DNA from: Chiloscyllium plagiosum
Taxonomy: Eukaryota
Assembly: GCF_004010195.1 (NCBI RefSeq)
Contig: NC_057755.1
Span: 7,244,252 to 7,291,980 of the forward strand
Direction: 5' to 3'
DNA: 47,729 nucleotides
Shown: positions 16,397-46,606 of the stretch, piece by piece
Numbering within the stretch: the first letter of the stretch is position 1
How the letters are laid out: every line of letters starts with the position of its first letter
The notes under the pieces: model-generated
What the model was told of the DNA's origin: nothing
The model's database searches: none
The model's input: the letters and a program-made list of their open reading frames with translations, nothing else
Position numbers and translations under genes: made by a program

Positions 16397-16752
16397 AGTG
16401 ACATTAAGTGAGAGGTCAATGAATTGTCTCGATGGAGGTTGACATAGAAGTCAGATCAGTGACGTATCTCGACGGAGAATGACAATAGAATCGAGGCCAT
16501 TGATGCATCCGTTTGGATAGTGACAATAAGATTGAGGTCAGTGATATATCGGGATGGACAGTGACAATAAGACAGGTCGGTGATGTATCCGGACGGAGAG
16601 TGACAATAAAGTCGAGGTCAGTGATATATTAGGATATCCAGTAACAATAAGACAGGTCGGTGATGTATCCGGACGGAGAGTGACAATAAAGTCGAGGTCA
16701 GTGATATATTAGGATATCCAGTAACAATAAGAGTGAGGTCGGTGATGTATTG
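16397..16752 (+). repeat. ~41-bp minisatellite, about 9 units, with an exact 80-bp dimer duplication
   Basis: Units start near 16412, 16452, 16493, 16534, 16573, 16614, 16653, 16694 and 16735. Consensus is approximately GAGGTCAGTGATGTATCCGGATGGACAGTGACAATAAGANT. 16564-16643 equals 16644-16723. Confidence 0.92.
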
Positions 16753-17247
16753 GTTGCAATAAATGGAGATCTCAGGATGAGGCTATTTGGATTTTAGTGG
16801 GCAGCAGAAGTATTGGCAGATTACTGATTCTTTATTTTTCTTTATTTAGTTATGATGACCTCTGTCTTGTTCTCACTCACCTTCCGTGCTCTCACTCATC
16901 CAGCCCCCCCCCAAACTCTTCACTATCTCACCATTCTACTTTCTCTTTTTTTCTGAGTGTTTCTTTCCCCCCCTTTCATCATCCATCGCTGGATATTTCC
17001 CAATCAATCCCAGTATTCCAGATGTTGAGAAGGAAGGGTCTGCAGGAACAGTTGTGGCTGTTTCTAATTCAACAAGTAGATTATTTTAATGTTCATCTGG
17101 TACTTTCATGATCTTTATTGTTGCTCGTCACGTTATAATTCAACACTTCTTCACCAATATTCTTCTTTGTGATGAAGACTGATTGCAAATGTTTCTTGGG
17201 CAACGTCTCCACCGCTAGTCTGCGTGAACTGAACTGATGTTAATTGC

Positions 17248-17297
17248 CCAATTAAAAACATAAGTTCACACTTGGTCAACAACTATGCTATAAAAAG
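17248..17297 (+). promoter_or_regulatory. Candidate core promoter of the GPCR gene (CCAAT and TATA box)
   Basis: CCAAT at 17248-17252 and TATAAAAAG at 17289-17297; the TATA starts 84 nt upstream of the ATG. Confidence 0.6.
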
Positions 17298-17372
17298 GAA
17301 GCCCTGTTACAGCTCCCAACCATTCTCATCTAAAGGATACAACGAAGCATAAAGTGAGCATTCTTCTGAAGA

Positions 17373-17442
17373 ATGGTGCGTCCTATAATTTTACAGATAA
17401 AGGATATCTTCTATCCTATGCTTGCAGCCTTTGGTGTTCCAG
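17373..17442 (+). CDS. GPR139-like class A GPCR, coding exon 1 (MVRPIILQIKDIFYPMLAAFGVP + 1 nt)
   Basis: ATG at 17373, 23 codons plus G, then donor CAG|GTATGT. The phase-1 join to exon 2 gives TM1 FYPMLAAFGVPANLLATVIL, matching the GxPAN motif of GPR139/142-type receptors. Confidence 0.88.
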
Positions 17443-17446
17443 GTAT

Positions 17447-17590
17447 GTTCTGCAAAAGGATCACTGGGCTAGAAACTTTAACTCAGTTTCTCTCTCGACA
17501 TATCCAGCCTTCCCAGCTGCGTTTATGAAACGGCTTTTGTTTGATTCTTTCGGATCTCCATCATCCACTGTTCTTCATTTTATTTAATTA
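17447..17590 (+). mobile_element. Degraded Penelope-like end (family C) right after the exon 1 donor
   Basis: GTTCTGCAAAAGGATCACTGGGCTAGAAACTTTAACTCAGTTTCTCTC resembles 27168-27295 (-) and 46607-46700 (+). Confidence 0.5.
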
Positions 17591-18019
17591 CTACATCTTG
17601 TTGTCTAATACTCGCTGTTGAACACTTTGTGAATCCTTATGTAACAATGTACATAGGAACACAATAGGCCAGTCTGCCTGTACAGCCTGTTCCTCCTTTC
17701 AATGAAGTAATCTTTAGTCTGTGACTTAACTAAATTGACTTGCTTTCAGCCCGTCCAGTTTAACAAAAGTATTATCAATTTTCTTTGAAAACGAAAAACT
17801 GATCGAGTTTGTGAGAGTTCTAAAATTCTCCCATTCGTTGTGTGGAGAAATGTGTCCCAGTGTCTTGCTTTCACTGTTTTAAAGTTGGGACTCACACTTT
17901 GAGCAAGTGATGAGAGTTTTTTCTCTTCCTTTGTCTCTCTTACTCTCTCTATCTCTCTGTCGCTCTGTCTCTCTGTCTCTCTCTCCCTATCTCTCTCTCT
18001 CGGGATCATACGAATTTGG

Positions 18020-18230
18020 CTTTCACTGCGTCAGGATGTGTTGGAGACAAAATAGTTGAATATTTTCAAGACCGGTGTTGATAGATTCCTATTTGGCTAG
18101 GGGATCGAGGGTTATTTGAAATTAATAGAAACGTGGAGTTCAAAACCCAGCAGAACAGCAGGATCTTACTGAATAGCATAGCAAGCTCGAGGGGATGAAT
18201 GGACTACCCATGTTTATGATCCTAATTTCA
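18020..18230 (+). mobile_element. Old CR1 3'-end fragment
   Basis: Similar to CR1 3' ends elsewhere in the window (e.g. 33510-33860). Confidence 0.55.
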
Positions 18231-18469
18231 TGCAAACAGAGATATGTGCATTGAGCTGTAGAACCTGTTTATTGATTCACGTAGAAAAATGACCGCCCAA
18301 CAAAGAGAATCTTTTCAGAATTAATTTATTTCTTTAAATATTTTCTTTCTTACTTCTTGGGACGTGAGACAGCCCTCGTTATTCATCTCGCATTGATTCT
18401 GTTAAAGTAGTGGTGAGGCTTCCGCTTGAAGTATTGATTTTAATTTCTTTGATTTGATTTACAATTGTC

Positions 18470-18843
18470 TGATACACCTTTGTACAGTGAAAGGTTTCGT
18501 TTTATTTGAAGTGCAGGCAGAGGATACCAGAAAAAAAGTGCACTTGGTGAATCCAACACAACAAAGTATGCAGAACTACTGCTGCAGAGAAGATGCACAG
18601 AAAAAGAGAACAACTTTAAATTAAGAATTTGAGAATTCTATTACCTTCTGCCTGATGGAAGAGGGTCGAAGAGATTGTAACTGGAATGGGTTGATTTTCT
18701 GAAGCAGTGGGAACTGTAGATGGAGCCAATAGATGAAAAGCTACTTTGTGTGATGGATTAGGCTGTGTTCACGACTCTCTGTAGTTTCTTGGGGTTTGGG
18801 GAACAGCAATTGTGAAACCACAATGTGATTCACCCAGACAGAA
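18470..18843 (-). mobile_element. Degraded non-CR1 LINE 3' fragment (L2/Rex-like)
   Basis: Recognised only loosely by recall; no intact motif. Confidence 0.3.
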
Positions 18844-18844
18844 T

Positions 18845-21650
18845 ACAACACAGAACAGCCCCTATGGCCCTCGATGCTGCACCAACCTGTGAACTAATCT
18901 AAGCCCATCCCCCTAGACTATCATCATCATCATACAGATGGTTATTCAAGGATTGTTAAATGCCCCTAATGTGGCTGAGTTAACGGCATTGGCAGGCAGG
19001 GCATTCCACACCATTACCACTCTCTGTGTAAAGAACTTGCCTCTGACATCTGTCTTAAATCTCTCACCCCTTAATTTGCAGTTATGCCCTCTTGTACAAG
19101 CCAACGTCAACATCCGAGGAAAAAGACTTACACTGTCTACTGTATCTAATCCTCTGATCATCTTGTGTGTCTCTATCAAATCCCCTCTTCGTCTTCTTCT
19201 CTCCAATGAGAACAGCGCCAGGTCCCACAGCCTTTTCCTGATAAGACCTTCCCTCCAGACCAGGCAACATCGTGGTAAATCTCCCCTGCACCTTTTCCAA
19301 CGCTCCCACATCCTTCCTGTAATGGGCCGACTAGAACTGTACACAATAGTCCAAGTGAGGCCGCACCAGCGTTTTGTACAGTGTTAGCATGACATCAAGG
19401 CTCCAGAATTCAATTCCTCTACTAATAAAACCTAAAACTCCTTCTTAATAGCACTATCAACCTGGGTGGCCACTTTCAGGGTTATATGTACGTGGACTCC
19501 ATGGTCCCTCTGCACGTCCACGCTATCAAGAATCGTTCCATTGATCCAGTATTCTGCCTTGCTGTTTTCTTCCCAAAGTGAATCACCTCGCACTTATCTG
19601 TATTAAACGCCATTTGCCACCTGTCAGTGCAGTCCTGCAGTTTATCCAAGTCTTCCTGCACCTGCAACATTCTTCCACAGTGTCCACCACTCCACCGACC
19701 TTACTGTCATCCGCAGACTTACTAACCTATCCACCTATACCTGTGTCCAAGTCATTTATAAAAATGACAAACAGCAGCGGTCCAAAAACAGATCCTTCTG
19801 GCACACCAGTATTAACAGGACTCCACTCCAGGCTGAATATTTTCCATCAAACACCACTTGCTGCCTTCTTTCAGAAAGCCCGTGAATGATCCAAACTGCT
19901 AAATCACCCTTAAACCCATGTCTTCGCATTTTCTCCAAAAGCTTACCACGTGAAGCCTTATCAAGGGCTTTGCTGAAGTCCACGCACATCAAATCAACTG
20001 CCCTACCCAAATCCATATGCTTGGTCACCTTCTAAAAATGAAACGTAATGAAATGTGTGCGACGCGACCTGCCCTGGACGAAACTATGCTGATTATGTCA
20101 AATTAAATTGTTGCTTGCTCGATGATAATCAATCCTGTCTCTTATAATCCTTTCCAAAATCTTTCCTACAACATACATAAGGCTCACTGATCAATAATTA
20201 CCTGGGTCACCTCTACTGCCCTTCTTGAACAAGGGCACAACATTTGTAATCCCCCAGTCCTTTGGTACTAAACCTGTAGACAATAACGACTGAAAGATCA
20301 AGACAAAAGCTTCCACCATACCCTCCCTAGCTTTCCAGAGAATAATCGGATAAATACCATTCGGCCCAGGGGACCTATCTATTTTCACACCTTCTAGATT
20401 TGATAACACCTCCTCCTTACGAACCTCAAACCTTTCTGGTATAATAGCCCGTATTTCAGTCTTCTCCTCTACAATATTCTCCTTTCTCTGAGTAAAATCA
20501 GATGATAAATATTCGTTTAACATCTCTTCGATCTCCACAGGGTCCACACACAACTTTCCACTTCTGTCTTTGACTGGTCCTATTCCTATCCTCGGCATCC
20601 TTTTATTCCTTGCATACGTATAGAAAGTGTTTGGGTTCTCCTTTATTCTATTTGCTAAAAACTGCTCATGTCCCCTCCCTGCTCTTCTTAACTCTCTCTT
20701 TAAATACCTCCTGACTAATCTGTAACTCTCCATTGCCTCATCTGAACCATCTCGTCTCAGCGTCATATAAGCCTCCCTCTTCTGCTTAACAAGAGATACA
20801 ATTTCTTTAGTAAACCACGGTTCCCTTAACTTTTCACTTCATCCCTGCCTGACAGGGACATATCTATCAAAGACACATAATACCTGTTCCTTAAAACAGC
20901 TCCGCATTTCGATTGCCCCCATCCCCTGCACTTTGCTGCCCCATTCTATGCCTCTTAAGTCTTGCCTAAATGCAATATAATTGCCCTTCCCCCCTCTATA
21001 ACTCTTGCCCTGTGGCATGTACCTATCCCTTTCCATCGCTAAACTAAACGTAACCGAATTATGGTCACTCTCTCCAAAGTGCACACCTACAACTAAATCA
21101 AACACCTGGCCTGGTTCATTCCCAAGTACCACATCCAGTGTGGCCTCCCCTCTTGGTGGCCCTTCGACATACTGTGTCAGGAAACCCTTCTGCACACATT
21201 GGACAAAAATTAATCCATCCGACGTACTAGAGTTATAGCATTCCCAGTCAATGTTGGGCAAGTTAAAGTTTCGCATAATGACCACCCTATTCCTTTCATC
21301 CCTGCCCAGAATCGTTTTTCCAATCCTCTCCTCCATATCCCTGGAACTTTGTGGAGGCCTATAAAAAAACTCCCAGCAATGTGACCTCTCCTCTTCCGTT
21401 TCTAACCTCAGCAGATACCACATTAGTAGTCGAGTCGTTGTCAAAAGTTCTTTCAGCCACCGTTATACTGCCCTAGACTAATAAAGCCAAACCGTCCCCT
21501 CTTTTACCCCCCTCCCTGATCTTAATGAAAAATCCGAACCCTAGAACCTGCAGCATCCATTCCCGACCCTGCTGTATTCATTTCTCCGAAATGGCCACAA
21601 CATCGAAGTCCCAGTTCATGCTGCAAGCTCACCTACCTTATTCTGAACAC
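18845..21650 (-). mobile_element. CR1 LINE ORF2 (endonuclease and RT) in the GPCR intron, antisense, decayed
   Basis: FYRPPQSS, NFNLPNIDW, LDVVLGNEPG, SDHNSV, NVVPLFKKGSRGDPGNY, DFSKALDK and LERRRRRGDLIE motifs across several frames. Confidence 0.92.
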
Positions 21651-21874
21651 TCACTGGCAATGATTCCATTTTCATCATTAGCTGCTTAATTTCAGATTTT
21701 ACTTAATTCGGATTTAATGAATTCAAATTCAAATTTCTATTTCAGGCTCGTATCAGAATCGCCTGAATATAATTTGTGTTTATCTATTCATAACCTAATG
21801 GTAATGCTACTTAATCATCACCTTCCGTATTTTGTGTGAACTCTAACTTATCTATTTTTCTCACTTTCTTACAG

Positions 21875-22821
21875 CAAACCTCCTGGCCACTGTGATTCTC
21901 GCGAGAGGAAACTGCGGACTTTCCAAATGTATTTCAGTCTACATGCTGGCGATGGTCACAGCAGATCTGATGGTCATGCTCGTTAATGTCATTTTGTTTC
22001 ACATTTTGTACAAACGGCTGCCAAATTCTTTCCTTTTCTACACTGTAGTTATCAAGCTAATATTGTACATGAACTGCACCAATGTGTATCTGTCGGTGTG
22101 GTACACAGTCTGCTTCACCTTTGACCGATTTATAGCTATATGCTGTCAGAAACTTACAACGAAGTATAACACAGTGAAATCTGCATCCACGGTCATAATA
22201 ATTGTCTCGGTCCTGGTATATTTAGGGAACATCCCTTTTTGGTTTGCATATGAAAAACAACACACAATTAACAATATTCACTGGGGATTCCGTCCCAATG
22301 TGAACTTTCTCACATCGCCCATAGGTGGAATGTACTCCAGGTTACAAAATGTTTTAGTTACTTGGATTCCTTTCATTTTGATATTTGTATTTAATGGTTT
22401 GACTGCCAGACATATTGTAGTAAGCAATACTATTCGCAAGAGACTCTGGATTCAGAAGGCTGAAAATCAGAATGATCCAGAAATGATAAATCGAAGGAAA
22501 TCGATTGTTTTACTCTTTGTGGTGTCAGGCAGTTTTATATTGCTAAATATGACATCTGCAGTCAGTTCTTTGATCAACACCTTGGTTGTGCTTGACCAAA
22601 TGCACTATACCTCCACCCCATACATTGCCACTGAGACTGGATATCTGTTCACCCATTTGAGTTCTTGTACAAATACATGCATCTATGCAATGACGCAAAG
22701 CAAATTCAGGGCAGAGCTACAGAAGGTGCTGAAATCCCCTTGGATACATTTCTTGATAATCGTCAAACGATTCAAAAAAACACTGCAAGCTTTTGTATCC
22801 TATTTAGAGCTCAAATTTTGA
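21875..22821 (+). CDS. GPR139-like class A GPCR, coding exon 2 (rest of TM1 through C-terminus; 338 aa spliced)
   Basis: Polypyrimidine tract and CAG acceptor ending at 21874, with branch-like CTAAC at 21843. Open frame to TGA at 22821. Motifs LAMVTADL (TM2), FTFDRFIAIC (TM3), WIPF (TM5), RRKSIVLLF (TM6), TNTCIY (TM7) and helix 8 SKFRAEL. Orthology to mammalian GPR139 is not established, so no symbol is given. Confidence 0.92.
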
Positions 22822-22996
22822 CCTAGATCCTGTGTACACTGATCATCATTTACGTTTGAAAGAATATTTATATGAAACTCGAGATGTTAACGCTGTATCT
22901 CTCTATATCTCTGTCTCTCTTTGTCTCTGTCCAGACTTCTCCAGCACTCCCTGTTGATATCATTTCATATTTTCACAACTCGCAATTATAGTGTCA

Positions 22997-23108
22997 AGAG
23001 TCCAACAGCAAGGAGATAGATCCTTTGTCCCAAAGCGGTCCATGCCGACCAAAATGTCCACCAATGCGAATTCCACTTCCCTGCACTTGGCCAATACCCT
23101 TCTCTAGT
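22997..23108 (-). mobile_element. 3' tail of an older CR1, continued at 26435-27060
   Basis: CR1-type 3' UTR. The sequence resumes after the 23.1-26.4k insert (CCAATACCCTTC vs CCGATATCCTTC). Confidence 0.55.
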
Positions 23109-23109
23109 C

Positions 23110-26100
23110 TAGATGACTTACAAGGGGAAAACAGTGGGGTATAGGGCTCTGGAACAGAGTCTGTCCCTGCTGCTCAGAGGGGAAAGGGGAAGAGGAGCAG
23201 TGCAGTAGTCACTGGGGGCAGATAGGAGGTTCTGTGGGGACGAGAGAGACTCACGGTTGGTGTGTTGCCTCCCAGGTGCCAGGGTTCGTGATGTCTCTGA
23301 TCGTGTTTTTGGGATCCTTAATGGGGAAGGAGAGCAGTCACAAGTCGTAGTCCACATAGGCACCAACGACATAGGTAGGAAACGAGATGTGGAGTTTTTG
23401 TAGAAATTCAGGGAGCTAGGAAGGAAGCTTACAGCTGGGATGAACAGAGTTGTTGTCTCTGGTTTGTTGCCCNNNNNNNNNNNNNNNNNNNNNNNNNNNN
23501 NNNNNNNNNNNNNNNNNNNNNNNNNNNNNNNNNNNNNNNNNNNNNNNNNNNNNNNNNNNNNNNNNNNNNNNNNNNNNNNNNNNNNNNNNNNNNNNNNNNN
23601 NNNNNNNNNNNNNNNNNNNNNNNNNNNNNNNNNNNNNNNNNNNNNNNNNNNNNGTGAACTTGCAGCATGGGTTGGTACCTGGGACTTCGATGTTGTGGCT
23701 ATTTCAGAAACATGGATAGAGCAGGGACAGGAATGGTTGTTGCAGGTTCCAGGATTTAGATGTTTCAGTAAGAACAGAGAAGTTGGTAAAAGAGGGGGAG
23801 ATGTGGCATTGTTGGTCAAGGACATTATGACAGTTGCAGAAAGGATGTTTGGGGACTCGTCAACTGAGGTAGCATGGGCTGAAGTTAGAAACAGGAAAGG
23901 AGAGGTCACCCTGTTGGGAGTTTTCTATAGGCCTCCAAATAGTTCCAGAGATGTAGAGGAAAGTCTATCAAAAATGATTCTCGGTAGCAGTGAGAGAGAC
24001 AGGGCAGTTGTTATGGGCGACTTCAACTTTCCAAATATTGACTGGGAACATTATAGTACGCGTAGTGTAGGTGGGTCAGTTTTTGTCCAGTGTGTGCAGG
24101 AGGGCTTCCTGACACAGTATGTAGACAGGGCAACAATGGGCGAGGCCACATTAGATTTGGTACTGGGTAATGAGCTCGGCCAGGTGTTAGACTTGGAAGC
24201 AGGTGAGCACTTTGGTAATAGCGATCACAATTCTGTTATGTGTGCTTTAGTTGTAGAAAGGGATATATGTGTATACCACTGGGCAAGAGTTACAGCTGGG
24301 GGAAAGGGAATTATGATGCGATTAGGCAAGATTTAGGAAGCATAGGATGGGAAGGAAACTGCAGGGGATGGGCACATTAGAAATGTGGAGCTTATTCAAG
24401 GAAAAGCTCCTGAGTGTCCTAGATAAGTATGTACCTGTCAGGCAGGGAGGAAGCTGTAGAGCGCGGGAGCGTTGGTTTACGCAGGAAGTGGAATCTCTGG
24501 TCAAGAGGAAGAGGAAAGCTTATTTTAGGATGAGAGGTGAAGGCTGAGTTAGGGCGCTTGAGGGTTACAAGGTAGCCAGGAAAGGCCAAAAGAGAGATCT
24601 CAGAAGAGCCAGGAGGAGACATGAGAAGTTGTTAGCGGATAGGATCAGAGTAAACCATAAGGCTTTATATAGGTGGTTAAGGAATAAAAAAATGACGACA
24701 GTAAGTTTAGGGCCAATCAAGGACAGTAGTGGAAAGTTGTGTGTGGAGTCAGAGGAGATGGGGAATCACTAAGTGAATACTCTTCGACAGTATTCATTCT
24801 AGAAAGAACAATGTTGTCGAGGAGATTACTAAGATACAGGCTACTAGACTAGGTGTGACTGAGGTTCACAAGGAGGAGGTATTATAAATTCTGCAGACTG
24901 TGAAAATAGATAAGTCCCCTGGGCCGAATGGGATTTATCCTAGGATCCTCTGAGAAGCCAGGGAGGAGATTGCCGAGCCTCTGGCATTGATCTTTAAATC
25001 GTCATTGTCCACAGGAATAGTGCCAGAAGACTGGAGGATCGCAAATGTGGTTCCCCTGTTCAAGAAAGGGAGTAGAGACAATTCTGGCAATTATAGACCA
25101 GTGAGCCTCTCTTCAGTTGTTGGTAAAGTGTTGGAAAAGGTTATAACAGATAGGATTTATAATCATCTAGAAAAGAATAATTTGATTAGGGACAGTCAGC
25201 AGGGTTTTGTGAAGGGTATGTCGTGCCTCACAAACTTTATTGAGTTCTTTGAGAAGGTGACCAAACAGGTAGATTAGAGTTAACCGGTTGATGTGGTGTA
25301 TATGGATTTCAACAAGGCGATCGATAAGGTTCCCCACAGTAGGCTAGAAGGGTGGGTTAGTAAATTTGCAGACGACACTAAGGTCGGTGGAGTTGTGGAT
25401 AGTGACGAAGGATGTTGTAGGTTACAGAGAGACATAGATAACTGAAGAGCTGGGGTGAGAGGTGGAAAATGGTGTTTAATGTGGACAAGTGTGAGGTGAT
25501 TCACTTTGGTCAGAGTAACCAGAATGCAAAGTATTGGGCTAATGGTAAGATTCTTGGTCGTGTAGATGAGAGAGAGATCTCGGTGTCCTGGTACACAGAT
25601 CCCTGAAAGTTGCCACCCAGGTTTACCAGGCTGATAAGAAGACATACAGTGTTTTAGCTTTTATTAATAGAGGGACCGAGTTCCGGAACCATGAGGTTAT
25701 GGTGCAGCTGTACAAAACTCTAATGCAGCCGCACTTGGAGTATTGTGTACAGTTCTGGTCACCGCATTATAAGAAGGTTGTGGAAGCTTTGGAAAGGGTT
25801 GAGAGGAGATTTACTAGGATGTTGCCTGGAATGGAGGGAAGTTCTTGCGAGGAAAGGCTGAAGGACTTGAGGTTGTTTTCGTTAGAGAGAAGAAGGTTGA
25901 GAGGTGACTTAATAGAGTCCCAGTATGGTGGCGGCGAGCACGAAGGGGCAATAGCTTTAAATTGAGGGGTGATAGATATAGGACAGATGTCAGAGGTAGT
26001 TCTTTACTCAGAGAGTAGTAAGGGTATGAATGCTTTGCCTGCAACGGTAGTAGATTCACCAACTTTAAGCACATTTAAGTCGTCATTGGACAGGCATATG

Positions 26101-26211
26101 GACGTACATGGAATAGTATAGGTGGGATGGGCTTCAGATCAGTATGACAGGTCGGCGCAACATCGAGGGCCGAAGGGCCTGTACTGCGCTGTAATGTTCT
26201 ATGTTCTATGT
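23110..26211 (+). mobile_element. CR1 LINE (ORF1 esterase end, ORF2 EN and RT, 3' UTR, (TTCTATG)n tail), decayed with internal deletion
   Basis: CCLPGARVRDV..HIGTND; VAISETW; GGDVALLVK; FYRPPNSS; MGDFNFPNIDW; SDHN; NYRPVSL; KFADDTK; tail GTTCTATGTTCTATG at 26196-26210. Confidence 0.93.
23473..23653. other. Assembly gap (181 N)
   Basis: Run of N inside the CR1. Confidence 0.99.
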
Positions 26212-26212
26212 T

Positions 26213-26429
26213 TGGCGCTGGAAAAGCACAGCAGGCCAGGCAGAATCCGAGGAGCAGGAAAATCGATGTTTCTGGCAAAAGCCCTTCATCAGAAACTTCA
26301 GCCCTTCTTGACGAAGGGCTTTTGCCAGAAACGCCGATTCTCGTGCTCCTCAGCTGCTGCCTGACCTGCTATGCTTTTCCAGCGCCTTACTCTCGACTCT
26401 GATCTCCAGCATCTGCAGTACTTACTTTC
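26213..26429. mobile_element. Penelope family A palindromic remnant with two degenerate hammerhead cores
   Basis: Inverted arms. Minus core CUGAUGAAGGGCUUUUGCCAGAAACAUC (26292->26265) and plus core UUGACGAAGGGCUUUUGCCAGAAACGCC (26308-26335). Confidence 0.78.
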
Positions 26430-26434
26430 ACAAC

Positions 26435-27065
26435 CCGATATCCTTCCTTCTTATAATTTGCTGTCCATATATTATCCAGATAAATGTTATTAAATTCCCC
26501 ATCTTAACTACTTTCATCGGTAGCTCATTCCACATGTGTACCACCCTGTGTGTAAATCTTTGCCACTCAGGTTCCCTTTCATTTTTTCCCCTCTAAACTT
26601 AAACGGATGCCCTCTTGTCCTTGATTTCCCAAACCTAGGGAAAACAACTAAGTGCATTCGCCCATCCATGCCTCACATGATCATATAAACGTTTATAAGA
26701 TTACCCCTTAGTCTAGTACACTCTAAAGAAAAAATAGTCCTAGCTTGACCAACCCCTCCCCATAACTCAGAAGTTTGAGTCCTGGCAACATCCTTGTAAA
26801 TTTCTTCTGCACTCTTTCCAGTTTAGTAACATCATTCCAAAGCTGAACACAATACTCTACGTGTGGCTTCACCAACATCCTGTATAACAGCAACCTAACT
26901 TCTCAACTTATGTATTAATTGTCTTGACTGATGAAAGCCTACCATGTGGAAACTTATCAAAGGCCTTACTGAAATCCATATTGACTACGTCTACCTCCCT
27001 GCCATCGTCAAACTTCGTGGTCACTCCATCAATGAACTCCAACAGTTCTTCGTTTATATCATCCA
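26435..27065 (-). mobile_element. Old CR1 ORF2 fragments (RT and 3' end)
   Basis: LLEFIDGVT..VDVVNMDFSKAFDKFPHGRL plus 3' end similarity. Confidence 0.8.
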
Positions 27066-27167
27066 ATTTCTGGTAGCTGTGAAAAGTATCAGCTACCAGA
27101 AATTCAGTTCCTCTCTGATGTGTTTGGTGCATGACATTCTCTGGAATTGAATGCCGGCGCTTCCTTC

Positions 27168-27870: not shown

Positions 27871-27890
27871 ACTTTGTCAATAACGCGTGT

Positions 27891-28767: not shown

Positions 28768-30552
28768 TATTGCCCTCGACAACATTGTCTTTTTCCAGTT
28801 AGAATACTGAAACGAAAAATATTCACTTAGCACTTACCCTACCTCCTCTGATTCCACGCACAATTTCCCACTACTGTCCTTGATTGGCCGCAATCTTACT
28901 CTTGTCATTCCCTTTTTCCTTATATACCTTTATAAAGCTTTTGGGTTTTCCCTGATCCTATCCGTCAACAACTTCTCATGTCCCCTCCTTGCTCGTCTTA
29001 GCTCTCTGTTTTGGTCTTTCCTGGCTACCTTGTATCTCTCAAGCGCCCTACCTGAGCCTTCACGTCCCATTCTAACATCTGCCTTCTTCTTCTTATTGAA
29101 AGAGATTCAACTTCTTTAGTAAACCACGGCTCCTGCTCTCGACAACTTCCTCCCTGTCTGACAGACACATACTTATCAAAGATGCAAAGTAGTTGTTCCT
29201 TGAATAAACTCCATATTTCTATTATGCCCAATTCCCTGCAGCTTCCTTCTCCATCTGATACATCCTTAATCTTGGCTAATCGCATCGTAATTGTTCTTCC
29301 CCCCCAGCTGTATATCTTGCCCTCCATACCTTTCCATCGCTAAAGTAAACATAACTGAATTGTGGTCACTATCTCCAAAGGGTTCACCTACTTCCAAATC
29401 TGACACCTGGCCACGTCAATTACCTAGTACCAAATCTAAGATGTCTTTGCCCCTTATTGGCCTGTCTACATACCGTCCTCCTGCACACAATGGACAAAAG
29501 CTGACCCATCTAAAATACTTGAACTATAGTTTCCCCAGTCAATATTTGGGAAGTTGAAGTTCCCCTAACAACTACCCTGTCACTCTCGTTCCTATGGAGG
29601 GTCATCTTTGCTATTCTTTCGTCGACATCTCTGGGGTTATTCGGAGGCCAATAGAAAACTCCCAGTAGGGTGACCTCTTCTTTCCGGTTTGTAATCTCAG
29701 CCCATACTACCTCAGTTGACGTCTCCTCAAATATCCTTTCTGCAGCCATAATACTTTACTTGACAAACAATTCCACGCTCTACTTCTTTTATCGTCTTCC
29801 CTGTTCTTACTGAAGCATCAACATCCCAGAACTTGCAAAACCCACATTCCGGTCACTGCTCTAACAAATTATCTGAAATGGCCACAATATCGAAATCCCA
29901 GGTACTGACCATGCTGCAGGTTTTTCCCACCTTATTCTGGATGCTCCTGGCGTTGACAATAGACGCACTTCAACCTTTTGCTTGCTGGTGCCCTCTTGCG
30001 ACTGTGTACCCTTATTTATGACCTCCCGATTCTCAACCTCCTCTTTACTTGAACTACAATTTAGGTGTCCATCCTCCTGCTGAATTAGTTTAAACCCATC
30101 CAAAGAGGATAACAAATGTCACCGCCCCCCCACCCCCAGACATTGGTACTATTCTCATTCAGGTGAAGACTATCCTGTTTGTAGAGGTCCCACCTACCAC
30201 AGAAAGAGCCCCAAATTATCCAGGAAACCAAAACCTTCCCTCTTGCACCATCTGTGAAGCCACGTGTTCAACTTCTCTCTGTCCCTTTTGCTCACCTCAC
30301 GAGAACATGGCACGGATTACAAACCAGAAGTAACAACTCTGTTTTTCCTAGCTCTTAGCTTCCAACCTGGCTCCCTGAATTTCTGCCTTAAATCCCCATC
30401 TGTCGTTGCTGTCTATGTGGCCCACGTCTATGGGCTGCTTCCCCTCACCCGCAAGGATCCCATAAACACTACCAGAGACATCGCAAACTCTTGCATCTGG
30501 GAGGCAACGCACCAACAGTGATTCTCTCTCTTTCCGACAGAACCCTCTGTGT
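28768..30552 (-). mobile_element. CR1 LINE fragment (ORF1 esterase end and endonuclease)
   Basis: RCLPDARVCDV, LLGVFYWPPNN and related motifs. A short tail remnant AGAACATAGAAC is at 28519-28530. Confidence 0.88.
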
Positions 30553-36553: not shown

Positions 36554-37816
36554 GTGGGAACCAGTACTTGTTAATCAGAATAGATGTGTTGACCAGGTTT
36601 CTGGAGGTAATTTCATTATGGAATATCAAGACAAAAAGAGTGGTAGAGGTGTTAGCAGCTTTCTTCGCACGGGATGGACTGCCCAGAGAGACTCAGTCGA
36701 ACCAAAGTCGTTTAACGTAGTTTAAGGTGGTTATGTATAGCTTAAATATACAGCGTTTTAAATCCAGTGCATATCACCCTGAATCCCTGGAAGATTTAGA
36801 AAGGTGGCATCAGACGTTAGAAACCACGCTGAGAGCATACTGACAGGGTTGCTGGAATGATTGGGATAACATTATTTGTATTGTTTGCCATTTGAGAAGT
36901 CCCAAACTAATCTATTCAGTTCACTCCCTTGGAGTTAGAATTTCGGCATTAAGTGAGAGGCCCTTTGAAACTAATGTGAGAAAAATTGGCAGGACCAAAG
37001 TCAGAGATCTCACACTCAGATTATGTATCTGAGGTGAGGGAGAAATTAAATTGGGTAGGTGACTTAGTTAAACAACACCTAAACAGGGCACAGCATAGAA
37101 TGAAGCAGGTGGCAGATAAAAGCTCTGAGGGTCGGCCATTTTCCCGATGGGATGACATGTTGCTACTATTGCCAGTGATACAAGATCTCTTCAAAGACAA
37201 ATTTAACGCTCCCAATCAGATTGAGGAAAAGTTGAGTCAGGTGAAAAAGGTGATTAATCTAGTAAAGATGCCAGATTGGGAAAAAAAAAGTAGTGAGTAT
37301 TGCATGTAAACATGTTGAAACTGTATTATAATAGAGAGGATAACTGGAGAAACAAGTGTTCGTTACTGCCCCGCAGAGTGAGGAAGCAAATCCAAATGAT
37401 GTGGATTTTGATGCGCTACAAAATAGATTGATAAAATGAAGAAGTCCTTGAGGAGTGGGATAGGTTAGCAAACTATCTGTGTCCTGAGCAGAACTATCTG
37501 TGTCCTGAGTTGAAAGATTCATTAATGCATTGGAAGAACATATGTAAGAATCAGATGGGGAGGATTAAATGCTATTGTACATGAAGTAGGTGTAGGGAAT
37601 GCTACTCCCACAAAACAGCACCCCATTCAGCTTAATCTTCCAATGCCAGACAGGTCCAGAATGAGGTGGGGGCCATGCTTGCAGACGATATCATCGAACT
37701 CGATGATTGAATTGCTCATCGTCTTAGTTGCCAAACTGGATGGGATTCAGTGATTTTGCATGGATAATTGGAAGGTCAATGCTGTTACAAAATCAGACTC
37801 AAATCCAATTCCGAGT

Positions 37817-38099
37817 TTAGATTAGATTACTTACAGTGTGGAAACAGGCCCTTCGGCCAAACAAGCCCCCGCCGACTCTCCGAAGAGCAACCCACCCAGA
37901 CCCATTCCCCTACATTTACCCCATCACCTAACACTACAGGCAATTTGGCATGGCCAATTCACCTGACCTGCACATCTTTGGACTATGGGAGGAAACCGGA
38001 GTATGTACAACCTCCACACAGTTGCCTGAGGCAGGAATTGAACCCAGGTCTCTGGCGCTGTGAGGCAGCAGTGCTAACCACTGTGCCACTCTGTGGCCC
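37817..38099 (-). mobile_element. HE1-type V-SINE
   Basis: (TAGAT)n tail, V-domain and tRNA head, all in reverse. Confidence 0.9.
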
Positions 38100-39187
38100 G
38101 GTAAAAGCTTGGAAGATTATAACGAGAAAGTCGGACATGCCAGTTACAAAACCAAGTTAGACTTACTGCGTGGTTACTGGCAGGGACCTTTATTAGAGAC
38201 AGTGAAAAGAATTTCTGTGTGTGCAACCCCAAATGGGCCATATCAATTTAAAGTGATGCCCTTTGGAATGAAGAATACACCCACCACATTACAAAGATTA
38301 ATGAACAGAGTCGTGGCTGGGTCAATGTATTTGGACAATGTCGTGATATTTCGTAAGTCCTGGAAAGATCACATGGTACAGTTGGCAGAGCTCTTTGAAT
38401 GACTACGAGAAGCAAAACTGGTAATAAACCTAAACAAAACTGAATTAACGAAAGCAGAGGTCACGTTCTTGGGACATAACATTGGTCATGGAAGGTTTTT
38501 TTAGATTAGATTAGATTAGATTACAGTGTGGAAACAGGCCCTTCGGCCAAACAAGCCCCCGCCGACTCTCCGAAGAGCAACCCACCCAGACCCATTCCCC
38601 TACATTTACCCCATCACCTAACACTACAGGCAATTTGGCATGGCCAATTCACCTGACCTGCACATCTTTGGACTATGGGAGGAAACCGGAGTATGTACAA
38701 CCTCCACACAGTTGCCTGAGGCAGGAATTGAACCCAGGTCTCTGGCGCTGTGAGGCAGCAGTGCTAACCACTGTGCCACTCTGTGGCCCGGTAAAAGCTT
38801 GGAAGATTATAACGAGAAAGTCGGACATGCCAGTTACAAAACCAAGTTAGACTTACTGCGTGGTTACTGGCAGGGACCTTTATTAGAGACAGTGAAAAGA
38901 ATTTCTGTGTGTGCAACCCCAAATGGGCCATATCAATTTAAAGTGATGCCCTTTGGAATGAAGAATACACCCACCACATTACAAAGATTAATGAACAGAG
39001 TCGTGGCTGGGTCAATGTATTTGGACAATGTCGTGATATTTCGTAAGTCCTGGAAAGATCACATGGTACAGTTGGCAGAGCTCTTTGAATGACTACGAGA
39101 AGCAAAACTGGTAATAAACCTAAACAAAACTGAATTAACGAAAGCAGAGGTCACGTTCTTGGGACATAACATTGGTCATGGAAGGTT
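37831..39187 (+). repeat. Tandem duplication, period 690 bp (HE1 SINE plus RT segment)
   Basis: 37831-38497 and 38521-39187 appear identical; identical 97-aa ORFs at 38109 and 38799. Confidence 0.95.
38501..38789 (-). mobile_element. HE1-type V-SINE (duplicate copy)
   Basis: Identical to 37817-38099 except for tail length. Confidence 0.9.
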
Positions 39188-39600
39188 GGCCCCTTGGAAC
39201 ACAAAGGTGAAGGCCATCAATGAGTTTACACGACAACGTCGAAGAAAGAGATGCTTCGATTCTTAAGAATCCACGAATTCTATCAGATATTTGTTCCAAA
39301 CTTCAGTAGTGCAGTGGCATCGTGAGCCGACTTGCTGAAGAAGGAAGTTTCAGTGGACATAACAAAGCCAGGAGAACGATATTAACCACTGCACCAATTT
39401 TGGCTGCAAAGTTTCAAAATATTTTAAAGTTTCCCTCGATGCTAGTGATAGAGGAATTGGAGTCACACTGTTATAGAAGACAAGGATGGGATTGAATTGC
39501 CAGTTGGTTACTTTTTGAAGAAACCCAACATCCACCAGAGGAAATACTCCACAATCAAAAAAGAACTAGTGAGTTTGGTACTGGCCTTACAACATTTTAA

Positions 39601-39880
39601 GGTCTCTCTGAAGAGTGGGGTGGGGCGGGAAATATATCCCGAGTGGTGGGGTCTGTTTGCAGGTAATGGAAGTGGCAGACAATGATGTGATGTGTCCAGA
39701 AGTTGGTGGGGTGGAAAGTGAGGATGGGGTGGTTTCTGTCCTTGTTGCGATTGGACGGGTGACAGTCAAGGGTGGAGGTGTGGGAACTGGAGGAGATACG
39801 CTGGAGGGCATTGTCGACCATGTCGGGGGGAAAATTATGGTCGTAGAAGAAGGCGGCTCTCTGAGATGTTGGTCCTCCTT
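39601..39880 (-). mobile_element. Penelope-like element coding fragment (RT C-terminus/linker before GIY-YIG)
   Basis: VDNALQRISS..RNKDRNHPILTFHPTN..HFHYLQTDPTTRDIFP.PP resembles the PLVLTFHP..IFP.PP linker of vertebrate Penelope ORFs. It truncates the Gypsy RNaseH. Confidence 0.7.
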
Positions 39881-40004
39881 GGAACAGTCAAAGGGCAGTC
39901 TACAGGGGTCCGTTAAGTTTTCTGGTGTCCGCTGATTAGAATGTAATTTTAGTGAAAAAATAAAGTTAATGTAAAATGGGAAACTTCAAAAGAGGTATAA
40001 ATAG

Positions 40005-40091
40005 TCCTCGGATGCTGGTTGACCTGCTGTGCATTTCCAGAACCACACTCTGGACTCAGATCCCCAGCATCTGCAGTCCTCCCTTTCTCCT
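40005..40091 (+). mobile_element. Penelope family A tail fragment
   Basis: CCTCGGATGCTG..TGACCTGCTGTGC.TTTCCAG...CCAGCATCTGCAGTCCTC. Confidence 0.7.
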
Positions 40092-40199
40092 GGAAGTTCT
40101 GTACATATCTTTGAGAAATAAATATATGGAATCGAAATTTATTGCACCTTAGATGACTGAGGTTCTTGGTACGTTAACAAGGAAGAAAAAGTGTATACC

Positions 40200-40890
40200 A
40201 GAAACATAACAGAAATAGAAATTGGGAAGAGTTTCTGAAATGCAAGAGAGAGATGCTAAGACTTGAGTAAGGAATGTAAAGAGGAAGGGGAGAGGAAAGA
40301 ATGCCAGGCTGCGTTGAAACAAATAATAAAATGTTCTTCAAACAAGTTCACAAAATAGGTTTAGTGAAGGCTAGACGGGGCTATGTGGAAATACATGTGA
40401 TGTACAGATCCTTGGCAGCATGGATTAGTAAATTAAACTTTGGCCAAAATATAGGAAGCAGAAGCTATACACAGATGGACACTTAAACTGGAAACAAATT
40501 GACACTGATGTTACCCAGGGATCAGGAATGATACTCGTGCTTTTTTCTTTCTGATTCATATGAATGAATTGGAGAATGGTATTGTAAGAAAAATCTCGAA
40601 ATTTGCAAATGATAACATCCAAAGGAGAATAGGGAAATCTGAGCATAATCCTGAGCATACACAGGATGGCCAATGGGCAGGTTCCTGGCATATAAACGTC
40701 AATGCGGAGAAATGAACCACAATGCATTTGGGTAGAAGAAGAAAGAAGACGCGATGCAGGATCAATGGTAACGCTTCCTGGGGAGTGCAGGACAGAGGCA
40801 ACAGAGTTCAAGTGCATAACTCTCAAATGTGGTCAGGCAATTTGAAAGAGATGTTAAGAAGACTGTGTGAATACCCTTGCTGAAATACAC
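40200..40890 (+). mobile_element. Highly degraded CR1 ORF2 fragments
   Basis: VTQGSGMILVLFLIHMNEL..ISKFAND, a decayed QGS..FADD motif. Confidence 0.65.
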
Positions 40891-40994
40891 GCAATCTCCA
40901 CCTCCCGCTCCACTCTCATGTACACACTTACTCTCCTCCTCAAAAAGTTCGAACACATGAAAACAAATTTCAATATCTTGTACATGACAGAAGG

Positions 40995-41200
40995 TCACTC
41001 CTGGGACGTGGGTGTCTCTGGCTTGCCAGCATTTGTTGCCTATCGTTGGCTGCTCTTGAACTGCGTTTTTTGCCAGGCTATTTGTGAGGGAAGCTGAGAG
41101 GAAACCATGTTGCTGTTGGTCTGGAGTCGCATGTTGGCCAGACCAGGTGATGGTGGCAGATTTTCTTCCTTGAAGAACATTAGTGAGTCAGGTGGATTCC
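40995..41200 (-). mobile_element. DeuSINE/SacSINE1-like fragment
   Basis: Homologous to 1800-2112. Confidence 0.5.
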
Positions 41201-41299
41201 CCCCACCCCCCTCCCATAATACACATGTTTCTGCATTTCCCTCAATGTTGGGAATTAATGCATTTTTCTTCATCAAAATGCATAATTTTATTTTTCTCG

Positions 41300-42110
41300 G
41301 CATTCAAACTCAACTGCAATGTGTCTGCCCATTTGGCTGACAGTTCAATGTCGCTCTGAAATCGCTCAGTGCCCTCTTCCCCAATTCACTGCTCTCCCCA
41401 GCTCCACAATAGCTTCAAATTTAGAGAATTTGCCATTGAACCCCATGTCCAACCCATTTGCCGTCTCCAATCTGAGGAAGTCCATCCATACCAAGATTAT
41501 GCTTCCTATCGTTTATCCAGTTTCTGATCCATGCTACGAAGGGCACATCAACGTTTATAATTTGCAAACCCAGACGTAATGTATGTATAAACTACATACA
41601 ACTACTCCAGCACATCCCAACACCCACTTAATCAAATAAAATGAATTAAAATTACCGGACATCACCTACGTTTGACAAAACCATGTTGATGGTCGAATAT
41701 TAACTGAGTTTTCATGAAGTGTATATTTATCTTACTCTTATTATGGCCTGTATGAATTTTCCCACTGTTGATGACAAACTAACTGGTCTGTTGTACATCG
41801 GGCTATCACTTGCCACTTTCGAAAACATTGGTGCCATATTTGGGTTCCTCCCGGACCCCAGGACTAATTCTGTGTTCAGATCAGCCTCGGAAATTTCTGT
41901 CAACGACCCTACAATTTTCTCTCTTTACTCTCTGAGCAATCTAGATATATATGATCTGGGCCTAGCGACGAGTCGACATGGAGTGCTGCTAGCCTTTGTA
42001 GCATCTACTATGAGACTGCTCAGATGCTTAAAGCTAATTTGGCAAAGACTCATTTAGCACCTCTTCCATGTCCTGTGTGAGCACCTTTCTCTGCTTGTTT
42101 CTTATGGTCC
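41300..42110 (-). mobile_element. Highly degraded CR1 ORF2 fragments
   Basis: Patchy similarity to the RT region of the neighbouring CR1 (e.g. YNRPVSL-like sequence near 41780). Confidence 0.5.
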
Positions 42111-42114
42111 TATT

Positions 42115-45100
42115 ATAGAACATAGAACATTACAGCGCAGTACAAGCCCTTCGGCCCTCGATGTTGCACCGACCTGTCATACCAATCTGAAGCCCATCTA
42201 ACCTACACTATTCTGTGGACGTCCATATGGTTGCCCAATGACGACTTAAATGTACTTAGAGTTGTCGAATCTACTACCGTTGCAGGCAAAGCATTCTATA
42301 CCCCTACTACTCTCTGAGTAAAGAAACTACCTTTGACATCTGTCCTATGTCTATCACCCCTCAGTTTAAAGCTATTCATCCCTTGTGCTCGCTGTCACCA
42401 TACTTGGAAAAAGGCTCTCACTGTTCATCCTATCTAACCCTAAAACTATCTTATATGTCTCTATTAACTCACCTCTCAACCTTCATCTCTCTAACAAAAA
42501 CAGCCTCAAGTCCCTCAGCCTTTCCTCGTAAGACCTTCCCTCCAGACCAGGCAAAATCCTAGTAAATCTCCTCTGAACCCTTTCCAAAGCTTCCCCATCC
42601 TCCCTATAATGCGGTGACCCGAACTGTACACAATACTCCAAGTGCGGCCACACCAGAGTTTTGTACCGCTGCGGCATGACCTCATGGTTCTGGAACTCGA
42701 TCCCTCTATTAATAAAAGCTAACACACTGTCTGCCTTCTTAACAACCCTGTCAATCTGGGTGGTAACTTTCAGGGATCTGTGTACCTGGACATAGATCTC
42801 TCTGCTCATTTACACTACCAACAATCTTACCATTAGCCCAGTACTTTGCATTCCGGTTACTCCGACCAAAGTGAATCACCTCACAATTGAGCGCATTAAA
42901 CTCCATTTGCCACCTCTCAGCCCAGCTCTGCAGCTTATCTATGTCTCTCTGTAACCTACAACATCCTTCGTCACTACCCACAATTCCACCAACCTTAATG
43001 TCATCTGCAAATTTACTAACGCATCCTTCTACACCCTCATCCAGATCGTTTATAAAATGACGAATAGTAGTGGACCCAACACCGATCCTTGCGGTACACC
43101 ACCTGTAACTGGGCTCTAGGATGAACATTTCCTATCAACCACCACCCTCTATCTTCATTCAGCAAGCCAATTACTGATCCAAACTGCTATATCTCCCACA
43201 ATCCCATTCCTCCACATTTTGTACAATAGCCTACTGTGCTGAAACTTATCGAACGCTTTGCTGAAGTCCATATACACCACATCAACCGGTTTACTCTCAT
43301 CTACCTGTTTGGTCACCTTCTCAAAGAACTCAATAAGGTTTGTGAGACACGACCTACCCTTAACAAAACTGTGCTGACTCTTCCTCATCAAATTATTCTT
43401 TTCTAGATGATTATAAATCCTATCTCTTCTAAACCTTTCCAACACTTTACCAACAACTGAAATAAGGCTCACTGGTCTATAATTACCAGGGTTTTCTCTA
43501 CTCCTCTTCTTGAACAGGGGAACCACATTTGGTTCTATTCCTGTAGACAATGACGATTTAAAGATCAATGCCAATGCCTCGGCAATCTCCGCCCTGGCTT
43601 CCCAGAGGATCCTAGGATAAATCCCATCCGGCCCAGGGGACTTATCTATTTTCACACTCTGCAGGATTTCTAATACCTCCTCCTTGTGAACCTCAATCAC
43701 ACCTAGTCTAGTCGCCTGTATCTCAGTAATCTCCTCGCCAACATTGTCAGTTTTCGAGAGTGAGTACTGTCGAAAAATATTCATTAAGTGCTTCCCCTAT
43801 CTCCTCTGACTCCACACACAACTTCTCACTACTATCCTTGTTTGGCCCTAATCTTACTCTCGTCATTCTTTTATTCCTTAAATACCTATAGAAAGCCTTA
43901 GGGTTTACCCTGATCCTATCCGCCAACAACTTCTCATGTCCCCTCCAGGCTCTTTGGAGCGCTCTCTTAAATCTTTCCTGGCTATTTTGTAACCGTCAAG
44001 TGCCCTAACTCAGCCTTCACATCTCATCACAACATAAACTTTTTTCTTCCTCTTGACCAAAGATTCCACTTCCTTCGTACACCATGGCTCCCATGCTCGA
44101 CTGATTCCTCCCTGCCTGACAGGTACATAGGTATCTAGGACACACAGGAGCTTTTCCTTGAATAAGTTCCATATTTGTAATGTGCCCATCCTCTGCACTT
44201 TCCTTCCCCATCCCATGCTTCCTAAACCTTGCCTAATCGCATCGTAATTTCCTTTGTCCCAGCTGTAACTCTTGCTCAGTAGTATACACATATCCCTTTC
44301 TATCACTAAAGTAAAACTAACAGATTTGTGATCGCTATCACCAAAGTGCTCACCTACTTCCAAGTCTAACACCTGGCCCTCTACATCTCTGGAACTATTC
44401 GGAGCCTATAGAAAACTCCCAACAGGGTGACCTCTCCTTTCCTGTTTCTAACCTCAGCTCCTACTACCTCAGTTGACGAGTCCCCAAACATCCTTTCTGC
44501 AACTGTAATACTGTCCTTGACCAACAATGCCACACCTCCCCCTCTTTCATCATTTTCTCTGTTCTTACTGAAAAAGCTAAATCCTGGAACCTGCAACAAC
44601 CATTTCTGTCCCTGCTCTATCCATGTCTCCGAAATGACCACAACATCGAAGTCCCAGGTACCAACCCACTCTGCAAGTTCACCCACCTTATTCCGGATGC
44701 TCCTGGCGTTGAAGTAAACACCCTTCAAACTAACTTCTTGCTTTCTGGTGCCATCTTGCGTCCCTGAAACTTGATGTCGCACCCCCCTACTCTCAACTTT
44801 TTCTATACTCGAACTATTATTTTGGTTCCCATTCCCCTGATGGATTAGTTTAAACCCACCCCAATAGCCTTAGCGAATTTCCCCCAGGATATTGATACCC
44901 CTCTGGCTCAGATGAAGACTATACTGCGTGTAGAGGTCCCACGTATCCCTCCTGCACCATCCCTATAGCCACGTGTTCAAATCCTCTCTCTTCCTATTCT
45001 TTGCCTCACTAGCAGGTGGCATGGGCAATAAACCAGAGGCAACAACTCTGTTCGTCCTAGCTCTAAGCTTCCATCCTAGCTCCCTGAATTTCTCCTTTAT
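42115..45100 (-). mobile_element. CR1 LINE (ORF1 end, near-complete ORF2, 3' UTR and tail), decayed
   Basis: YFNARSIRNK, ISETW, GGGVALLVK, DKSPGPDGIYPRIL, NYRPVSL, DFSKAFDK, KFADD, HLEYCVQF; tail ATAGAACATAGAACAT at 42115-42130. Close relative of 23110-26211. Confidence 0.94.
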
Positions 45101-45188
45101 ATTCTACACTAATCTTTTATGAATAATATATAGATATATTATTGTAAATGAAAGATCAGAGATCATCATTTTCTGAAGGATGTATCCC

Positions 45189-45345
45189 AAGTTTAGTGAT
45201 TGATCCCGAGGGACAATGAGAAAAACAGGGATGCCAGTGATACATCTGGATACAGACTGACATTCAGATTGAGGTTAGTGACTTATCCGGATGGACAGTG
45301 ACAATAAGAGTGAGTTTACTGATGTGTCCAGATGGAAGGTGATGG
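45189..45345 (+). repeat. Second array of the ~41-bp minisatellite (about 4 degenerate units)
   Basis: Unit at 45271, GAGGTTAGTGACTTATCCGGATGGACAGTGACAATAAGA, matches the unit at 16534 with 4 mismatches. Confidence 0.8.
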
Positions 45346-45644
45346 TTTGAGGATTTGCATTCTTGTTAAATTCTGCCTTATTTGAACGTGGTGCTTTGAT
45401 GAAGGACGTGTGACAATCTGACTGTGATTTTTATTGTTTGGATAAATGCAAGCTTCTGTTCGGAGGGCTCTGTTCTTTGGATGAGCTCCGTTGGCTTGAG
45501 ACGTTTGTGTCAGGGAATGGGATTCATTCAGAATAAAGAATTGCTTGAATTTGATTTCTATTAAATTCAGAAATCGAAACTGCTTGTAATGCTGAAGTAG
45601 CGTGAGACGCTGAATTGTTTTCTCTTACAATGAGCTTTTGGAAG

Positions 45645-45940
45645 ACAGTGGCATAGTGAAATTATTACTTAGTTACTGTTGTGAGGTCGAGGTTAATGTG
45701 TAGTGAGTGTAGGTTCGAATCCCACCATGGCAGGTGCAGAAGTTCAAATGACATTGCAATTTTCAATTAATCCGCTCGTCCATTTCTCCATTGTGGGAAG
45801 TGCATCTTGTTCACTGAAAACCTTTCATCAGGAAAATGAGTCTGCTCTCCTTACGTGATCCTCCATATGACAACAGACTCTGAGCAATGGTGAATAAATG
45901 CTGATCACAGCAGCAATGCACACATTCACTGAACGAGAAG
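45645..45940 (+). mobile_element. DeuSINE/SacSINE1-like SINE
   Basis: A box GTGGCATAGTG, B box GGTTCGAATCC, 3' AATAAATGCTG..CAGCAATGC.CACAT. Confidence 0.6.
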
Positions 45941-46241
45941 AACCAGATCAAACATTGAGTTAAAAGTTCTTGTTTGAAATAGGCAGCTCCAACCCTTGAG
46001 GGCAGAGAATGATATTTGAGTGGTCAACATTATTGCTTATATGTCGCACATTCTGTTTTTGTTATTCAGTTTGTGTCCAGAGTAGCAATGCTCCTTCATA
46101 ATACGGATTGCATTCGTTTTTGCAATTAGCCTGCTCATTTACAAAAAAAACAACAATTGGAAAACGGTCACAAAGCTGAGCAAAGTTGCAATCTTGACTT
46201 CCCCAGGGAGATTCCGCAGAGTATAAGGCGGCGTTTATGGA

Positions 46242-46332
46242 ATGCATCAAATCAGAGTTTCAAACAAGGATCAACCAATTCAACACGTGTAAAAACTGTT
46301 CTACACCACCCTTGCTTGCATTGGCATTTCTG
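46242..46332 (+). pseudogene. Probable pseudogenised exon 1 of a second GPR139-like receptor
   Basis: One frame reads MHQIRVSNKDQPIQHV*KLFYTTLACIGIS+G, then GTATGG. It aligns to exon 1 of gene 1 (PIILQIKDIFYPMLAAFGVP), has the same phase-1 donor, and has TAA at 46290-46292. TATAAG lies at 46222. No exon 2 is in the window. Confidence 0.6.
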
Positions 46333-46606
46333 GTATGGCGTTATGACAATTAAACTTGTTTTAATGTGCTGCTGATCTGCTCTGTGCTTTTACTCTTTGA
46401 ACAACAATGTGACAAGCTGTCTTACTGGTCAGCCTAATCCAGCCACCCAAACAGTGATAGCAATTTATGGAGCAGAATCCTCGGTACAGATCTCCACTGA
46501 CAGGGGCTCCCAATTTCACTGCTGCAGCAGCATTTTCTGTTCTCAGTGTTCTGCCATCTGTTGTGGGTTTGAAACATTTTGAACGTATGAAGAGAGATAA
46601 TACGAG

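Follow-up and report, generated by a model that had tools for sequence, protein, structure and literature searches.

How can two arrays of one tandem repeat, each standing upstream of a first exon of a different G protein-coupled receptor (GPCR) gene, still be alike when the sequence between array and gene is not? The question is raised by a stretch of 47,729 nucleotides of Chiloscyllium plagiosum (contig NC_057755.1 of assembly GCF_004010195.1, forward-strand positions 7,244,252 to 7,291,980), hereafter the window, in which all positions below are counted. An earlier note on this DNA had described a repeated cassette, consisting of a 41-bp minisatellite, about 0.6 kb of spacer, a TATA box and a small exon 1, and had proposed that GPR139-like genes had duplicated together with it. 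We tentatively interpret the arrays, at a probability of roughly 0.45, as a family-linked upstream minisatellite of elasmobranch GPR139/142-related gene clusters, kept alike through occasional exchange between arrays.

Two arrays in a shared layout

Array 1 (16398..16752, plus strand) comprises 9 units of 39-41 bp, worn ends counted, with the worn units at the 5' side. Its near-consensus unit is 16520-16560, followed by a near-perfect 80-bp dimer (a 39-nt and a 41-nt unit) that occurs twice, at 16561-16720. Array 2 (45190..45342, plus strand) consists of about 3.5 worn 41-bp units. Tandem Repeats Finder reports period-41 arrays at 16456-16750 (7.3 copies) and, in a short form, at 45258-45336. 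A hidden Markov model (HMM) built from the array 1 units matched only these two arrays in the whole window, as the earlier note had claimed; the arrays are 73% identical across 148 nt (E 6e-18). The mean identity of units is 70% inside array 1, 60% inside array 2 and 66% between the arrays (best pair 83%), compared to 45 +/- 6% for random 41-mers. The likeness ends at the array borders on both sides, and among the flanks of the arrays and the introns nothing can be aligned except common repeats.

Both arrays lie on the gene-sense strand upstream of receptor exon-1 sequences, and array 1 ends 620 nt before the ATG of the first gene (gene A), in agreement with the earlier description. The distance from the array end to the TATA-like box is 537 nt at gene A and 567-584 nt at the second locus (gene B), the latter after removal of an old insertion resembling a short interspersed element (SINE; about 45635..45947, plus strand), which indeed accounts for the longer spacing. 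This insertion has nhmmer matches to 1826-2124 (E 8e-6) and to 15632-15895, and the SINE copies are 57-66% identical in pairs. The TATA-like box of gene A, TATAAAA (17289..17295, plus strand), is 84 nt 5' of the ATG and is presumably used in transcription. Two homeodomain-type TAATTR sites on opposite strands are found at 17241-17254, 35-50 nt before this box.

Alignment of the spacers with the SINE removed, which the earlier note had suggested, gave no detectable homology. Spacer A (16753..17288, plus strand) is single copy and does not align with spacer B: the score of 77 compares to 75.5 +/- 10.5 for shuffled sequences, and 118 of 300 shuffles reach it. When homologous spacers were simulated, they were found in 100/100 cases at 60-80% identity and in 89-97/100 at 50% (89-100/100 across 50-55%). 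Because the spacers of about 0.6 kb have no detectable common sequence, the cassette appears to be conserved in layout only.

Two receptor subfamilies, one probably dead exon

Gene A has two exons. Coding exon 1 (17373..17442, plus strand) contains 23 codons and one additional nucleotide, with a phase-1 GT donor at 17443 and a profile independent E-value (iE) of 8e-15; exon 2 (21875..22821, plus strand; AG acceptor at 21873-21874) encodes the remainder of the seven-transmembrane (7TM) receptor. The open frame corresponds to an intact class A 7TM receptor of 338 aa (PF00001, E 1.2e-16). The closest models among the matches listed are from whale shark and zebra shark, 80-82% identical (whale shark 82%). 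Of 1932 candidates, at least 924 proteins are related to exon 2 at E <= 1e-10; the 120 matches listed come without exception from sharks and rays, and most of them are labelled 'probable GPR139' by NCBI. One single-cell run of unknown tissue, of which about 2% of the reads were covered, yielded no exon joint for gene A and an exon depth of 0-0.28, a result that carries no weight either way.

In a tree of 42 proteins (five rows under half filled; human GPR139 not included), gene A groups with shark and ray 'probable GPR139' models (100/99), within an elasmobranch-only clade (100/100). Gene A and P0218, a bamboo-shark model 43% identical to it, fall into separate clades, each supported at 100/99-100. 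As each of these clades holds both sharks and rays, the separation of the two genes predates that of sharks from rays.

The likeness to GPR139 and GPR142 should be read with care. The best solved-structure match of gene A is human GPR139 (E 2e-17), and its relatives carry the GPR139 label; unlike GPR139, gene A belongs to an elasmobranch-only clade with several hundred members. The match to GPR139 scores 66.6 bits, compared to 57 bits for CCR1 and 280-530 bits for shark paralogues, values that come from different searches. By this score gene A is not a GPR139 orthologue, and the label is best understood as that of the nearest named relative; the hundreds of gene A paralogues also counter single-copy GPR139 orthology. 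Related receptor models are present in coelacanth, teleosts, amphibians, lamprey and amphioxus, and fish and coelacanth orphans neighbouring GPR139/142 are named GPR210A/B in PMC6504862.

The family is clustered. If sequences of equal size are taken as one contig, 15 of the 120 matches listed lie on one horn-shark sequence, and seven zebra-shark models of several branches lie on one 13.97-Mb contig. This contig includes the closest gene A matches as well as a member of the clade of the second exon, and the suggestion of a tandem GPR139-like receptor cluster is thereby upheld.

The second exon-1-like sequence of the earlier note (exon B; 46242..46332, plus strand, intact phase-1 GT donor at 46333) is a genuine paralogous exon 1, of the second subfamily. 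It ranks second of 1127 G|GT sites by the family exon-1 matrix, with 21.9 bits, the next site having -1.1. With a profile of near paralogues the iE is 2.2; with a wider profile (45 sequences from 50% representatives, P0218 omitted and nine mis-anchored rows dropped) it is 0.008. P0218 is the closest model, and the match spans exon B and the TATA region (tblastn E 4e-7). The implied function did not stand. Compared to P0218, exon B has a 16-codon gap in which the usual start codon is gone, and it contains an in-frame TAA at 46290-46292; with these lesions, gene B is very probably a pseudogene. An ATG at 46242, in frame with this TAA, follows the TATA-like box by only 20 nt. Past the donor of exon B the window continues for 1.4 kb, and exon 2 of gene B would fall beyond it. 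Within the window, no further receptor exon was found by tblastn of 122 proteins or by exon-1 profiles.

Several family members have tandem repeats of their own. In seven proteins (P0250, P0234, P0156, P0212, P0239, P0253 and P0176) the N-terminus is built from 13-14-aa tandem repeats that contain N-glycosylation sequons, in up to about eight copies; this branch, from catshark and zebra shark where the species is named, thus has a mucin-like ectodomain that is absent from the branch of gene A. P0089, a Heptranchias model, begins (residues 1-79) with tandem copies of a 16-aa (48-bp) unit. These probably represent a minisatellite upstream of the gene that was mistaken for an exon, and P0089 may be another family member with an array upstream. 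A back-translated matrix indicated that its 48-bp repeat is unrelated to the 41-bp unit. The 41-bp array was also considered as a relic of either coding repeat, and the scores were within background for the 13-14-aa repeat (a profile made from one unit) and for the 16-aa repeat alike. The translated 41-bp repeat matched none of 270 receptor homologues and, on the plus and minus strands, no protein model longer than the query at E 0.1; as evidence, the latter negative is weak.

Exchange, placement or selection

Since the receptor subfamilies split before the shark-ray divergence and the spacers have been erased, the likeness of the arrays exceeds what neutral co-duplication permits. Either later exchange, or selection, or independent placement would account for the excess. 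A plain neutral duplication of the entire cassette, which the wording of the earlier note implies, agrees with the similar order and spacing of the parts. It is hard to reconcile with spacers that do not align, given that simulated pairs were detected without fail at the 60-73% identity of the arrays, whose units reach 66-83% between loci; it also conflicts with the age of the two subfamilies. It would hold only if spacer B were a later insertion of similar length, and is otherwise largely refuted; we regard it as very improbable.

The explanation that we favour assumes an ancestral gene unit composed of the array, about 0.55 kb of spacer, a TATA box, an exon 1 of 22-23 codons, an intron and a large exon 2. 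The unique spacer would then have diverged beyond recognition, and the arrays of a cluster would occasionally have swapped sequence, by ectopic gene conversion or unequal crossing-over, so that their likeness was kept. Each array would also change alone, either gaining units, as the 80-bp dimer beside gene A suggests, or wearing down, as at pseudogene B, and arrays may seed further duplications. Any transcriptional effect would be that of a promoter-proximal variable number tandem repeat (VNTR). Under this explanation other family members would carry the array and exchange would keep the arrays alike; unit identity between the arrays equals that within them, which is consistent with a last exchange long ago and decay since then.

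Further copies were sought by mapping public contigs at 80% likeness onto 15900-23400, for the species of the window and two related species. The summed depth in the main array bin was 2398, 1173 and 56, respectively, i.e., approximately 163, 31 and 6.5 times the single-copy level, whereas exon 2 stood at 4-32 times that level across the three species. The single-copy baseline was the median of 5, 4 and 4 flanking bins, with one uncovered bin omitted. It should be noted that summed depth is no copy number: it is inflated by short overlapping contigs, and most arrays worn to the degree of array 2 would escape notice at 80%. The content of near-identical repeats varies widely among the three species and does not track receptor number, a pattern that fits a fast-turning-over repeat. 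In both related species, contigs place the array upstream of gene A. Both also have contig joints that step back 41 nt or whole units, and because these joints carry other variable letters, further head-to-tail 41-bp arrays exist in their genomes. A collapsed local expansion as the source of the high depth was rejected by inference, the next bin being single-copy (11.8). Contig ends were found at 16593 and 16703, as expected of two or three turns of the dimer. The 41-bp unit pattern had no match in metagenome contigs and none in viral contigs; for the receptor profile, 145 pattern matches in metagenome contigs gave no confirmed case.

These depths bear equally on another possibility, namely a dispersed minisatellite, or the relic of a mobile element, that has no special tie to the genes and reached both loci by independent landing or local hopping. 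Many near copies lie elsewhere in the genome of the species studied here, the levels differ 25-fold among the three species regardless of exon-2 depth, the arrays have neither flanks nor spacer in common, and their identities resemble those of neutral repeats in the window, such as the SINE pair. Conversely, the chance that both arrays would fall in sense orientation 1-2 kb upstream of both first exons is approximately 2e-4 to 9e-4, a rough post hoc figure for this window; for the common position of the arrays taken more broadly, the corresponding estimate is 2e-4 to 2e-3. The excess in the third species is only about six times single copy, compared to thousands-fold for bins of long interspersed elements (LINEs), which speaks against an abundance like that of a SINE, although copies below 80% would not be seen. 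The arrays have no terminal repeats and no common element ends or flanks of the transposon type, although very old ends could escape detection, and the LINE beside array 2 stops at 45102, where other LINE copies continue. On balance, we consider a dispersed origin rather unlikely. Derivation of the array from a LINE 5' end was rejected, and the window has no Rfam match to a structured RNA.

Selection offers a third route to the excess likeness. The arrays would be a shared upstream enhancer, in line with the family-specific enhancer or gene-choice element suggested in the earlier note: a multimer of transcription-factor sites, free of methylation at live genes, whose effect depends on the number of units. 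Such an array could set the expression frequency of each receptor. The fixed position and orientation, the likeness that outlasts the spacer and the retention of the array beside gene A by both related species are as expected, and VNTRs are capable of enhancer action according to passages of PMC12776774.

Base composition points in the same direction. Array 1 contains 16 CpG dinucleotides versus 6.4 expected, an observed/expected ratio (o/e) of 1.16 compared to 0.46 for the window (Poisson P 0.0009, or 0.0045 without the duplicated dimer; post hoc). It is the most CpG-rich stretch of the window, in which 0 of 921 other 355-nt windows reach an o/e of 1.1; the worn 5' units alone have 6 CpG versus 2.4 expected (P 0.035). 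By contrast, the o/e of array 2, at the pseudogene, is 0.32, although the array is too short for significance (P 0.45). The excess in array 1 is consistent with unmethylated DNA at a live gene, or with recent turnover of units, which can also produce it.

Factor sites give a divided picture. A simple IUPAC scan for TAATTR, which we take to be the Lhx2 motif, had no match in array 1 and none in array 2; as neither array has it, the Lhx2/Ebf composite of mouse receptor enhancers is absent from the arrays. For TCCCNNGGGA, presumably an EBF/Olf-1-type site, there are only two perfect matches in 47.7 kb, both in cassette B (0.46 expected; 5/100 shuffles reach two). One is in array 2 (45204-45213), in a single worn unit among 12-13 units. 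The other (46200-46209, plus strand), upstream of exon B, lies 22 nt before a TATA-like box, TATAAG (46222-46227); the stretch of P0218 that matches 46200-46227 reads PQG...YKAA and is compatible with the same TCCCNNGGGA site. Cassette A has no EBF-type site anywhere, and a search for a perfect IR1 nuclear-receptor site had no matches.

Constraint on the arrays is also not apparent. Contigs carrying the array, flanks included, are 6.3-6.4% divergent between species, whereas those of the intron and the 3' side diverge by 4.8-5.5% (Fisher P 0.23), and 9 of the 41 columns are invariant over 8 units versus 5.6 expected, which is near binomial. With the missing sites also considered, we regard the enhancer interpretation as about as likely as a dispersed origin. 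A broader form of it, in which the several hundred orphan receptors of sharks and rays, perhaps chemosensory, are under per-gene tandem-repeat enhancers with conserved position, unit turnover between lineages, absence of methylation at live genes, decay at pseudogenes and unit number setting the frequency of choice, appears improbable.

The exchange of sequence between family-linked arrays, which we prefer, has its own difficulties. The neighbouring genes are known for no more than two arrays, and one of these genes is dead. Repeat depth that does not follow exon-2 depth would equally fit arrays far from receptor genes. Derived letters common to both arrays in one register number five, versus about 2.7 expected, and another register also gives five, in what is a weak test. 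The CpG excess of array 1 is not predicted by exchange, and gene conversion is a candidate mechanism only.

The remainder of the window is rich in retroelements. Decayed LINE copies with endonuclease and reverse-transcriptase fragments (18900-21600, 23100-26300, 28800-30550 and 42100-45100) fill the gene A intron and the intergenic space. An assembly gap of 181 N (23473-23653) lies in the LINE just past gene A. At 37831-38820, a decayed retroelement contains a pair of copies, spaced 690 bp apart, with 100% identity over at least 300 nt. Either this tandem duplication is very recent or it is an artefact of the assembly.

Comparison to known systems and meaning for the family

In human 19p12, beta-satellite repeats are reportedly interspersed with clustered, expanding KRAB zinc-finger genes, forming cassettes (work attributed to Eichler et al., 1998, and cited in PMC2671837). 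There, as here, a tandem repeat is found amid the members of an expanded clustered family, and it is said to be linked to the expansion. In contrast to those cassettes, the arrays described here are small (0.15-0.35 kb), stand 0.55 kb before a TATA box, are common to subfamilies that predate the shark-ray split and accompany orphan GPCRs.

Promoter-near minisatellites offer a second comparison. PMC12776774 describes the MAOA VNTR and the 72-bp VNTR of SIRT3 as promoter/enhancer VNTRs, single-locus, with demonstrated effects. The arrays resemble them in being near a promoter and variable in unit number, and could likewise alter the density of factor sites or methylation; they differ in that one unit recurs at distant paralogues and in that they are known from sequence alone. 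The mouse olfactory-receptor enhancers called Greek Islands, as portrayed in PMC5608512, are intergenic, serve many genes each and have adjacent Lhx2 and Ebf sites. Olfactory receptors likewise form a large class A GPCR family that is clustered and includes pseudogenes, and EBF-type sites occur in cassette B; unlike Greek Islands, the arrays are per gene, tandem and devoid of the Lhx2 motif.

Our literature searches yielded no study of a GPR139-like expansion in cartilaginous fishes or of the 41-bp repeat, although such an expansion may appear in the gene-family tables of publications on shark genomes. The available portion of the main text of PMC11979771 mentions neither GPR139 nor GPR142, and that of PMC8455134 does not mention GPR139. 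The latter describes cartilaginous fishes as poor in olfactory receptors and GPCRs, with which the number of gene A relatives contrasts. If the repeat proves to be dispersed, the finding would amount to no more than a common type of minisatellite next to one gene and one pseudogene. If, conversely, the repeat does mark the promoters of the family, it would be a tag for finding all members and pseudogenes, a candidate engine of the expansion and a route into the regulation of the family.

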